Of a stretch of DNA of 37,988 nucleotides, positions 887 through 3,756 are shown piece after piece. The stretch spans positions 1 to 37,988 of the IMG/VR virus record IMGVR_UViG_2737471821_000001, one strand, 5' to 3'. Under the pieces are notes generated by a model. The model was not told the DNA's origin and did not search any database. It saw only the letters and a list, made by a program, of their open reading frames with translations. Source of the DNA: a virus (lineage: Duplodnaviria; Heunggongvirae; Uroviricota; Caudoviricetes). A program made the translations under genes and the position numbers. Position 1 is the first letter of the stretch, and each line of letters opens with the position of its first letter.

Positions 887-1351
887 CTATTTCTTTATGC
901 GTTTCTGAGCTGCCAGCATATTTTCAAACGCTTCTTTGTAGAGTTCATTCTGGCCTTTAAGCCTTTCGATTAGTTTTGCTTTTTCTGATTCGGGGAGGAT
1001 ATCAAAAAGATCCAGTAAATCAGCTTGTTGCTTGTTAACCATCCGCCACCCTTCGCCTTCGAAACTTTCGTCATAAGTTCCAGAGGAACGGACGTAATTC
1101 ATCAGATCAGCTAAATCAGGCCTCAAGTCTTCAGGCTTAACTCTTAGCAATACTGCGAATTTTAATGCCGCATCAGTGTTAAGTGGAGCCTTTCCGTTGA
1201 GATAGTGGCTAACCGTAGATTGCGTCTCAAAGCCCATTAGCTCGGCAGCAAGCTCCTGAGTCAATTTGAGCTCTCTTTTTTTTGCATCCCAGATTCCGCG
1301 TAGACGCTGCGTAGCTTCTGGCGATGCGATTTCTTCGCGTTTTCTTCTCAT
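887..1351 (-). CDS. racR: prophage repressor, HTH XRE family (RacR-like)
   Basis: 154-aa ORF with an N-terminal HTH region (LKLTQELAAELMGFETQSTVSHYLNG). Transcribed divergently from the cro-like ydaS, with an operator-like palindrome in the shared intergenic region. Confidence 0.75.
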   Translation of the reverse strand: MRRKREEIASPEATQRLRGIWDAKKRELKLTQELAAELMGFETQSTVSHYLNGKAPLNTDAALKFAVLLRVKPEDLRPDLADLMNYVRSSGTYDESFEGEGWRMVNKQQADLLDLFDILPESEKAKLIERLKGQNELYKEAFENMLAAQKRIKK

Positions 1352-2137: not shown

Positions 2138-2214
2138 TTGAAATTAATCGTGCCGGATTGTTTTGTTCGGTATCAGTTAAATGTAACGCTGCGAGCGTTA
2201 CAAGGTGAAAACAA

Positions 2215-3003
2215 ATGGCTTCAAACTGGATAAAGCTCGAGGTTATTACGCCGGATAAGCCGGAAATATTCAGGCTTGCTGAGATTCTGAATATTGATCC
2301 AGATGCCGCATTAGGGAAGGTTATTCGCTTCTGGGCATGGGCGGATCAACAAATGATAGACGGTAATGCAGATTGTAACGCTCGCGGCGTTACAAAAAGT
2401 GCAATAGATCGCATCACTTTTATGGCTGGTTTTGCTGATGCGTTAATTCAGGTTGGATGGCTGGTCGAAAATGACGTTGGGCTTTCTCTACCTAACTTTG
2501 AACGCCATAACGGAAAAAGCTCTAAAAAACGGGCGGTTACAAACGAGCGAGTTACAAAAATACGTGAACTGAAACGAAAAGGTAACGCTGCCGGCGTTAC
2601 ACAAACGGATCAAAAAGCGCTACCAGAGGAAGAGGAAGAGGAAGATCTAAATACTGATCTCCCCCTAAATCCCCCTCGCCAAAAACGAGCGTCTAAAAAA
2701 TTCGAGCCGGAGGCTATTGAGCTGCCCGATTGGTTGCCGGAAACACTCTGGCATGAGTGGGTCCGGTTCAGACAGGCATTGCGAAAACCGATTCGAACGG
2801 AGCAGGGCGCTAACGGGGCGATACGGGAACTGGAAAAATTCCGTCAGCAGGGGTTTACACCTGAGCAGGTGATTCGACACAGCATCGCCAATGAATACCA
2901 GGGCCTGTTCGCGCCGAAAGGTGTTCGGCCTGAGACGTTGCTCCGACAGGTTAACACCGTCTCGTTGCCGGACAGTGCGATCCCGCCAGGCTTCAGGGGG
3001 TAA
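2215..3003 (+). CDS. ydaU: phage replication initiation protein (YdaU-like)
   Basis: 262-aa ORF immediately upstream of the DnaC-like loader. Contains an acidic EEEEEED linker and three GTAACGC/GCGTTAC palindromes in or just upstream of the gene. Confidence 0.6.
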   Translation: MASNWIKLEVITPDKPEIFRLAEILNIDPDAALGKVIRFWAWADQQMIDGNADCNARGVTKSAIDRITFMAGFADALIQVGWLVENDVGLSLPNFERHNGKSSKKRAVTNERVTKIRELKRKGNAAGVTQTDQKALPEEEEEEDLNTDLPLNPPRQKRASKKFEPEAIELPDWLPETLWHEWVRFRQALRKPIRTEQGANGAIRELEKFRQQGFTPEQVIRHSIANEYQGLFAPKGVRPETLLRQVNTVSLPDSAIPPGFRG

Positions 3004-3009
3004 CAGACC

Positions 3010-3756
3010 ATGAAAAATATTGCGACAGGAGGCGTTCTGGAGCGTATCCGCAGACTGACCCCACCACATGTAACCGCCCCATTCAGAACGGTTGCGGAGT
3101 GGCGCGAGTGGCAACTTGCTGAAGGCCAGAAACGTAGCGAGGAGATCAACCGCCTGAATCGCCAGTTGCGGGTGGAAAAAATTCTGAATCGCTCAGGCAT
3201 CCAGCCGTTGCACCGTAAATGCTCGTTTGCGAATTACCAGGTGCAGAACGACGGCCAGCGATACGCGTTAAGCCAGGCGAAATCCATCGCCGATGAACTG
3301 ATGACCGGGTGTACAAATTTTGCGTTCAGCGGAAAACCTGGTACCGGGAAGAATCACTTAGCGGCAGCTATCGGGAATCGCCTGCTGAAAGACGGTCAGA
3401 CAGTGATTGTGGTTACCGTGGCTGATGTTATGAGCGCCCTGCACGCCAGCTATGACGACGGGCAGTCAGGCGAAAAATTTTTGCGGGAACTGTGCGAAGT
3501 GGATCTGCTGGTTCTTGATGAAATTGGCATTCAGCGCGAGACGAAAAACGAGCAGGTGGTACTGCACCAGATTATTGATCGACGGACAGCGTCGATGCGT
3601 AGCGTGGGAATGCTGACAAACCTGAACTATGAGGCCATGAAAACATTGCTCGGCGAGCGGATTATGGATCGCATGACCATGAACGGCGGGCGCTGGGTGA
3701 ATTTTAACTGGGAGAGCTGGCGCCCGAATGTTGGTCAGCCAGGTATTGAAAAGTAA
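3010..3756 (+). CDS. ydaV: DnaC/IstB-like AAA+ helicase loader (YdaV-like)
   Basis: Walker A motif [15 protein letters not shown] and Walker B LLVLDEIG. 248 aa. Confidence 0.85.

Follow-up and report, generated by a model that had tools for sequence, protein, structure and literature searches.

Replication origins that lie inside the gene of their own initiator are textbook knowledge for lambdoid phages, and the kind of arrangement described here is therefore already known. In phage SPP1 (G38P/oriL) and in lactococcal P335-type phages, an initiator with a winged-helix N-terminal domain recognises repeats inside its own gene and then passes on to a helicase loader; these replisome organisers belong to Gram-positive systems with direct-repeat boxes, and we know of neither a polypurine tract nor a deeply conserved site sequence in them. 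In lambda, the iterons are 19-base-pair (bp) imperfect inverted repeats, accompanied by an AT-rich tract in the middle of O (PMC7466680), and Rac, a prophage of Escherichia coli K-12, was reported to have an active origin, oriJ (PMC3945230). The stretch analysed in this study (IMG/VR record IMGVR_UViG_2737471821_000001, positions 1 to 37,988; hereafter the window) is a Rac-like prophage that shows 100% identity to one in E. coli RM11911, and carries three palindromes of the form GTAACGC-N5-GCGTTAC in and just upstream of its replication initiator gene (2215..3003, plus strand). Judged from comparative sequence analysis, and with a probability of roughly 0.7, these palindromes are recognition sites of the protein encoded by that very gene and form, together with the sequence just 3′ of the third copy, the replication origin of the prophage. 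Binding of the initiator to these sites, for whichever function, is highly probable.

The locus resembles lambda O/ori-lambda (and its equivalents in the Shiga toxin (Stx) phages P27 and 933W) in several respects: the origin would lie within the initiator open reading frame (ORF), between the origin-binding and the loader-recruiting parts; the sites are inverted repeats of about 19 bp with a strand-asymmetric tract beside them; and the loader gene is next downstream, in a unit that follows cro- and cII-like genes. It differs from lambda in that (i) the N-terminal domain (N-domain) has no detectable sequence relation to lambda O; (ii) one full core dyad is combined with half-sites of 12-bp period, instead of the 4-6 tandem iterons of lambda, and extra dyads are located about 200 and 400 bp upstream; (iii) the tract is a GA-repeat polypurine tract, whereas that of lambda is AT-rich; (iv) the loader is DnaC-like, not lambda P, and the site sequence is kept across phyla.

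The initiator gene encodes 262 amino acids (aa), with a winged-helix-like N-domain (aa ~10-95), a predicted basic helix (aa 101-123) that carries V113, a predicted disordered linker (aa 127-150) and a YdaU-like C-terminal domain (C-domain; aa ~176-230). Exact matches to GTAACGC-N5-GCGTTAC are found at 2183-2201 (site 1), 2375-2393 (site 2) and 2582-2600 (site 3), with no other copy in the 37,988 bases and 0 matches across 100 dinucleotide-preserving shuffles. The bare 7-mer GTAACGC is enriched in the window (13 seen versus 4.0 expected), 6 of the 13 being within the three palindromes. With flanks, site 1 (2182..2202; TGTAACGCT-GCG-AGCGTTACA) is non-coding and occupies the gap between ydaT and the initiator gene, where it adjoins the Shine-Dalgarno sequence AGGTGA (2203-2208) ahead of the ATG at 2215. 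Sites 2 (2374..2394; TGTAACGC-TCGCG-GCGTTACA) and 3 (2581..2601; GGTAACGC-TGCCG-GCGTTACA) are both intragenic, being located, respectively, in the coding regions of the N-domain and of the disordered interdomain linker, and are translated as C-N-A-R-G-V-T (aa 54-60) and G-N-A-A-G-V-T (aa 123-129). The palindromes of the preliminary description are thus real and unique in the window, and its account of a first copy near the ribosome-binding site and two intragenic copies that encode N-A-x-G-V-T peptides agrees with these positions and translations. The spacer of 3 to 5 bases given there reflects only how far the arms were extended, as the geometry of all three sites is the same (7 + 5 + 7 = 19 bp). 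The even spacing also noted there holds in the window (192 bp start to start between sites 1 and 2, and 207 bp between sites 2 and 3) but is lineage-specific, since the upstream site is nearly restricted to Enterobacterales. Furthermore, a degenerate half-site, GTAATGC (2363..2369; one mismatch), is located 12 bp 5′ of the left arm of site 2; the two jointly encode G-N-A-D-C-N-A-R-G-V-T, and this 12-bp direct spacing of half-sites recurs in homologues.

The conservation of the sites was determined in 80 homologous loci, collected from one-genome-per-species contigs of Enterobacterales, Planctomycetota, Verrucomicrobiota (including Akkermansia), Burkholderiales and others, with 42-98% N-domain identity. 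Sites were counted over 81 loci (494 kb scanned), a site being called present if it matched the half-site class of its own locus at no fewer than 12 of 14 positions, within +135..+175 for site 2 and +320..+430 for site 3. Most loci harbour an exact GTAAC-N9-GTTAC at two shared intragenic offsets (about +148/+160 and +337..+412). Site 2 was present in 68 of the 81 loci, site 3 in 66 and both in 61, with merely 3 further matches outside the expected positions in the 494 kb. The upstream site was found in 17 of the 81 loci; it is essentially confined to Enterobacterales and absent from the other phyla. Enterobacterial homologues carry it, by the same threshold of at least 12 of 14, at −32..−44 despite differing upstream flanks, frequently with an extra half-site 12 bp before it. 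By this comparison the two intragenic sites are ancestral and site 1 is an accessory, a predicted distal initiator site of Enterobacterales. The spacing between sites 2 and 3 among the homologues is 189, 198, 207-209, 219, 231 or 264 bp; helical phasing between the two is not conserved among these spacings, and no claim on helical phase is made because of this variation.

Selection acts on the DNA of these sites. Among 59 sequences filtered to below 80% identity, the codons of the motif are constrained (GGT 83%, GCT 79%, GTT 79% and ACA 56%), while the same codons were used in 2-34% at other conserved Gly, Ala, Val or Thr columns of the same genes. The position matrix reads GTAACGCT-N3-AGCGTTAC, with an unconstrained central spacer; T2, A4, C5 and G6 of the half-site are almost invariant over phyla, and G-T wobble is nearly missing among arm pairs (2 of about 680 pair cells). 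The DNA-level conservation is thereby established. The preliminary description had proposed that the palindromes be compared with the protein among homologues: rather than being lost where the protein is shared, they are kept at synonymous positions, and in this sequence comparison they are better conserved than the protein, across phyla. G-N-A-x-[S/G/C]-V-T is nothing more than the dyad in translation, AAC being the reverse complement of GTT and GCN the partner of NGC. This amounts to dual coding, in that two peptide segments plus an acidic/basic linker are largely translations of DNA signals. An AlphaFold2 model places the codons of site 2 in a low-confidence loop that lies between helix 2 and helix 3 (aa 49-60; predicted local distance difference test (pLDDT) score about 63), and those of site 3 and of the tract after it in the disordered linker (aa 127-150; pLDDT below 50), which weakly suggests that both sites occupy parts of the protein that tolerate change.

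The half-site differs among lineages, and it does so in a concerted manner. Loci without GTAACGC carry other dyads, the change being identical in both arms and at both sites per genome: GTCACGC/GCGTGAC (loci L038, L070, L074, L077 and L082), GTGACGC/GCGTCAC (L078), GTTGCGC/GCGCAAC (L049) and CTAACGC/GCGTTAG (L069). An asymmetric GTGACGC/GCGTAAC is found at both sites of L039 and at site 2 only of L043, where site 3 is the symmetric GTTACGC/GCGTAAC. In the phages epsilon15 (L164) and phiPSA1 (L167), with 34% identity, the dyad is GTCCGC-N7-GCGGAC. In epsilon15 it is located at +65 and +344 (about 35244 and 35523 of NC_004775.2, a record in which no origin is annotated): the distal dyad at +65, an offset shared by phiPSA1, is within the N-domain coding region and in another part of the protein, and that at +344 is within an array of four half-sites of 12-bp period abutting CAGAGAAGAGAAGAGAAGAG. 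The proximal region of both phages consists of two direct plus two inverted half-sites of 12-bp period, followed by the same polypurine tract.

Among the alignment columns of the initiator, residue 113 holds all of the information on half-site class (0.75 of 0.75 bits in the genome set), V being associated with GTAAC, Q or K with GTCAC, and M or N with the rarer classes. The association was also found in independent viral contigs chosen solely by the half-site beside the tract (GCGTTACC... for the GTAAC class and CGTGACC... for the GTCAC class). In the GTAAC-class set, 54 of 62 distinct proteins have V at residue 113 and 50 of 56 distal dyads are GTAAC; in the GTCAC-class set, all 32 proteins have Q or K there and all 28 distal dyads are GTCAC (Fisher p=5.9e-18 for residue 113 versus class and 8.8e-17 for distal dyad versus proximal class, p-values that ignore shared ancestry). 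Within one subclade, T113 goes with GTAAC (L067), and K or Q with GTCAC (L070, L074 and L082). The co-variation of arms, sites and initiator residue is thereby established. It is a protein-level association, because codon 113 is not fixed as GTT outside Enterobacterales (31% of V113 codons; not DNA-constrained). In the window this codon (GTT, 2551-2553) is part of a half-site-like GAGTTAC with one mismatch (2549..2555, plus strand), located in the basic-helix coding region together with a weaker CGGTTAC (2534-2540); the former reads CGCGTTACA in enterobacterial relatives and is not universally kept at the DNA level. In general protein-DNA chemistry, Val or Thr facing a thymine methyl group and Lys or Gln facing guanine would be sensible pairings. 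Origin sites usually drift fast along with their initiators, yet 14 of the 19 bases are kept between prophages of E. coli, Planctomycetota and Akkermansia, with a few lineages that show clean switches following one residue. These specificity switches constitute a natural mutational series for protein-DNA recognition and origin incompatibility.

A likely origin core, judged from its layout, is located downstream of site 3 at 2617-2675, a region that had escaped the preliminary description. Anchored on site 3, the layout across phyla is direct half-sites of 12-bp period, the dyad, 4-10 bases and a half-site that abuts CAGAGAAGAGAAGAGAAGAG, often then paired C-tracts and AAGGGG. In the window, the extra half-site GCGCTAC (2617..2623, plus strand; GCGTTAC in close relatives) is directly beside the polypurine tract AGAGGAAGAGGAAGAGGAAGA (2625..2645, plus strand), which encodes EEEEEE and is put forward as the DNA-unwinding element. 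Of the 59 non-redundant homologues, 49 have a purine run of 12 nucleotides (nt) or more (median 23) at +330..+500, versus 0.03 expected. In most of these 49, the tract is preceded by 9 bases whose end is a half-site followed by C or CT; the half-site varies with the specificity class (GCGTGACC, GCGTCACC, GCGCAACC). The constraint is again on the DNA: all 86 Arg codons inside the tract are AGA, a codon used for 6% of Arg elsewhere in the same genes (loci of 43-68% GC), and the encoded peptide differs by lineage (EEEEEE, EKRREEK, EGEGEGE) while the purine run stays. The half-site-plus-tract element was found in more than 120 viral contigs, and in all 76 of those with enough upstream DNA the initiator N-domain is encoded on the same strand, a median of 387 nt upstream, which establishes a strict linkage of core and N-domain; the sequence of the element was in no open paper searched.

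Moreover, AT skew is +0.5 to +0.59 over 2500-2660. The right edge of the tract carries two GATC (Dam) sites (2644-2647 and 2656-2659), and GATC is found at the equivalent place in enterobacterial relatives and in K-12 ydaU. Next to it is C5-TAAAT-C5 (2661..2675, plus strand), which encodes P-L-N-P-P and marks the right boundary of the cassette, the homology to K-12 ydaU starting here. Paired C-tracts were found in 13 of the 59 homologues, often as CCCCCC-N3-5-CCCCCC-AAGGGG, read as P-P-x-x-P-P-K-G; this element, where K-12 ydaU homology resumes, could be a recombination junction or a structural element of the origin. No DnaA box was found near the proposed origin region. The preliminary description had likened the palindromes either to iterons of an origin embedded in an initiator gene or to autoregulatory operators, a pair of readings that is supported by the DNA-level conservation, the co-variation with residue 113 and the origin-like core at site 3.

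The initiator protein was described as YdaU, a name that fits its C-terminal third only. In BLASTP against K-12 YdaU, only aa 96-262 align (64% identity over 179 aa, E 8e-74), and the N-terminal DNA-binding half is not of the YdaU type: searches of the protein against Pfam and NCBIfam returned no family match, the DUF1376/YdaU domain included. The profile PHROG 2509 ('replication initiation protein') matches the full length (aa 1-262, E 8.5e-89) and the N-domain alone (E 4.1e-66), while PHROG 6451 matches aa 126-262 and PHROG 678 ('replication initiation O-like') aa 100-236 only. No sequence relative was found among Protein Data Bank entries. RefSeq labels the product a hypothetical protein (WP_010358686.1) and the K-12 counterpart a 'YdaU family protein'. 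PHROG 2509-type initiators were found by tblastn in 59 phage records (among them TL-2011b, CP2, PAN70 and several Ralstonia and Vibrio phages), with epsilon15, SPN1S and phiPSA1 as more distant members, and an exhaustive HMMER search at E<=0.001 returned 6,539 clusters at 50% identity. A candidate origin and recognition sequence are thus provided for a very large, Pfam-less family of phage initiators (epsilon15-like phages, TL-2011b, Xanthomonas CP2 and Rac-like prophages).

Rac of K-12, with YdaU/YdaV, has a similar layout. Position and gene order (repressor-ydaS-ydaT-initiator-ydaV-DUF1627) are alike, the initiators are homologous in their C-terminal 120-180 aa (64%) and the ydaV genes at 95%; however, the N-terminal DNA-binding half (of DUF1376 type in K-12) and the repeats are unrelated. 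As both are entirely different, K-12 and the window are related by a swap of the whole module.

From these data we infer that the initiator physically binds the sites, that it forms oligomers or loops the DNA, that the tract is unwound and that the segment acts as an origin, as follows. The initiator would bind as a dimer to dyads of 19 bp, GTAACGC(T)-N3/5-(A)GCGTTAC, with a winged-helix-like N-domain and then the basic helix in every monomer, and the side chain of residue 113 may read base 3 of the half-site. The proximal cluster (site 3, the flanking half-sites and 2617-2623) would nucleate an oligomeric complex against the polypurine/polypyrimidine tract at 2625-2645, which would be opened, and the C-domain would then recruit the DnaC-like loader (the ydaV product) together with host DnaB; this domain is variable and would match the downstream helicase loader. 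The distal dyads (site 2, ~207 bp upstream, and in Enterobacterales site 1, a further 192 bp) might be drawn in by looping or wrapping, and could additionally damp transcription entering the initiator gene.

Several points weigh against an origin at these sites. The full dyads are 190-260 bp apart and not in tandem as in lambda, and the tract of the window, at 43-52% GC, is not classically AT-rich. The co-variation demonstrates, at the level of sequences, a co-evolving binder, and does so without separating origin from operator. A verrucomicrobial subgroup (L054, L056, L057, L060, L061, L063 and L068, and further L075, L076, L079 and L081) is without clear dyads or tract. Moreover, the searchable literature holds no experimental binding or replication datum for the initiator family, and K-12 Rac was described as replication-defective (PMC11014345). 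Because the verrucomicrobial subgroup lacks both features, the dyad/tract arrangement is not obligatory for the N-domain fold; these homologues may have another type of origin or be domesticated copies. In the same subgroup N-D-L-N-V-T replaces G-N-A-x-S-V-T, and some members carry a weak 12/14 site at −57.

A broader reading of the origin is offered only tentatively, and we rather doubt it in its entirety: the unit would be an ancient, self-contained replicon module of temperate phages of Proteobacteria, Planctomycetota and Verrucomicrobiota, with a code between position 113 and base 3 and with opening at the (GAGAA)n tract. As parts of this same joint proposal, the code would be re-programmable (V for an A-T pair, Q or K for a C-G pair), and the tract, being in the initiator's own transcript, might be opened by transcription through an R-loop or triplex. 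Should the proposal be true, the 'transcriptional activation' of phage origins would gain a defined sequence basis. A rule made of the N-domain, two dyads and the half-site plus tract is usable for the annotation of prophage origins and could inform broad-host replicon design. What appears to be undescribed in the searchable literature is the architecture specific to this family, together with the conservation of site and tract across phyla and the one-residue specificity switches; the ydaU literature yielded nothing on an origin, and nothing relevant was found for an origin of epsilon15.

Among the alternatives, it is unlikely that the dyads are purely autoregulatory operators or transcriptional roadblocks, occupied by the initiator or another repressor so as to limit transcription or translation of the gene, with the origin elsewhere. 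The co-variation with residue 113 fits any function that needs initiator binding, site 1 adjoins the Shine-Dalgarno sequence, and the dispersed spacing of 190-260 bp is more like that of looping operators than of tandem iterons. However, it is the intragenic pair that is conserved across phyla and not the upstream site; a promoter scan found no sigma-70-like promoter overlapping any of sites 1, 2 and 3; and the proximal half-site array ends on the N-domain-linked polypurine tract, for which a role in repression is not obvious. An operator role is conceivable for site 1, but pure autoregulation would not account for the tract. Operator and origin functions are, moreover, not mutually exclusive.

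It is very unlikely that the palindromes work in the early mRNA as RNA hairpins (stem of 7 bp, loop of 5 nt) with an effect on translation, stability or termination, although both arms change in a compensatory manner, site 1 is beside the ribosome-binding site, a hairpin at site 3 is predicted by single-strand folding and minus-strand site 3 plus its T-run is terminator-like. Hairpins are disfavoured because it is the sequence itself that is conserved, not pairing alone, with the loop free and wobble almost absent, and because isolated direct half-sites of 12-bp period, which cannot pair, co-vary in class nonetheless. The class furthermore follows a residue of a DNA-binding-like protein.

Still more improbable is that another regulatory protein of the phage or the host, for instance YdaT (CII-like), the repressor or a transcription factor of the host, binds the sites. 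The gene ydaT is immediately upstream, and YdaT-family proteins bind inverted repeats (PMC11014345); yet K-12 Rac, in which YdaT is 96% identical, has no GTAACGC dyads in ydaU or in its ydaT-ydaU region. YdaT was rejected as the binder, as it does not co-occur with the dyads across loci: homologues of YdaT, YdaS, the repressor, YdaV and even the C-domain were found in at most 10 of the 81. Were the binder a host factor with conservation from E. coli to Planctomycetota, the specificity switches that follow residue 113 would go unexplained.

The last alternative, a by-product of the conserved peptide G-N-A-x-S/G-V-T and codon preference, has a negligible probability and was ruled out: the peptide is conserved in the protein alignment, but the choice of motif codons departs strongly from that at other conserved columns, site 1 is non-coding, the peptide shifts with the DNA class (GHAxGVT, GDAPHVT, GCAPSAT, TNATCVS), the motif falls in a loop and a disordered linker, and the architecture is kept while the sequence and the distal position change, the distal dyad of epsilon15 being in a different part of the protein.

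The neighbouring genes of the window comprise a helix-turn-helix repressor (887-1351, minus strand), a YdaS/Cro-like gene (1456-1731) and the YdaT/CII-like gene (1715-2137) immediately upstream of the initiator gene, and, downstream, the DnaC-like helicase loader gene ydaV (3010..3756, plus strand; Pfam IstB_IS21 E 5.4e-20 and Bac_DnaA E 1.1e-8; 'ydaV, ATP-binding protein' in RefSeq), followed by a DUF1627 gene. The ydaV product is the presumed partner of the initiator C-domain. The immunity region (887-1731: repressor and cro-like gene) differs from K-12 racR/ydaS (L001 588-1484; L001 being the K-12 ydaU locus in the DH1 chromosome), and DNA similarity to K-12 Rac begins only near 1709, inside ydaT. 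Because of both observations, the prophage reads as a mosaic with at least three exchange points, which delimit the immunity region, the initiator N-terminal half plus origin, and the rest. A perfect DnaA-box consensus, TTATCCACA, is found at 177-185, close to the window's left end and far from the proposed origin; there are two such matches in all, a number within chance expectation.

On the minus strand, site 3 followed by CTTTTCGTTT (2582-2610) scores as intrinsic-terminator-like, a score that simply reflects the palindrome; the signal could halt antisense transcripts that run towards the N-domain region, or it may be fortuitous, the coding strand being A-rich. K-12 ydaU has linker repeats of its own at 2294-2410 of L001, namely (A/G)TGTTCAAAC at 2331 and 2364, TGTTGAAG at 2376 and an inverted TGTTTGAACA at 2390, which are followed by an A-rich stretch with two GATC and by C7-TAAAT-C6-G5 (about 2455-2478). 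This region is plausibly the core of the historical oriJ, which would place oriJ inside ydaU. Finally, in the close relatives L004 and L005 (from the chromosomes of Shigella flexneri and E. coli; gene at 3001) the tract is 6 nt shorter, the ORF has only 210 aa and the C-domain is in another frame, and many database proteins of the same cluster have 93-218 aa, which suggests that in cryptic prophages the initiator often decays and the dyads are retained.

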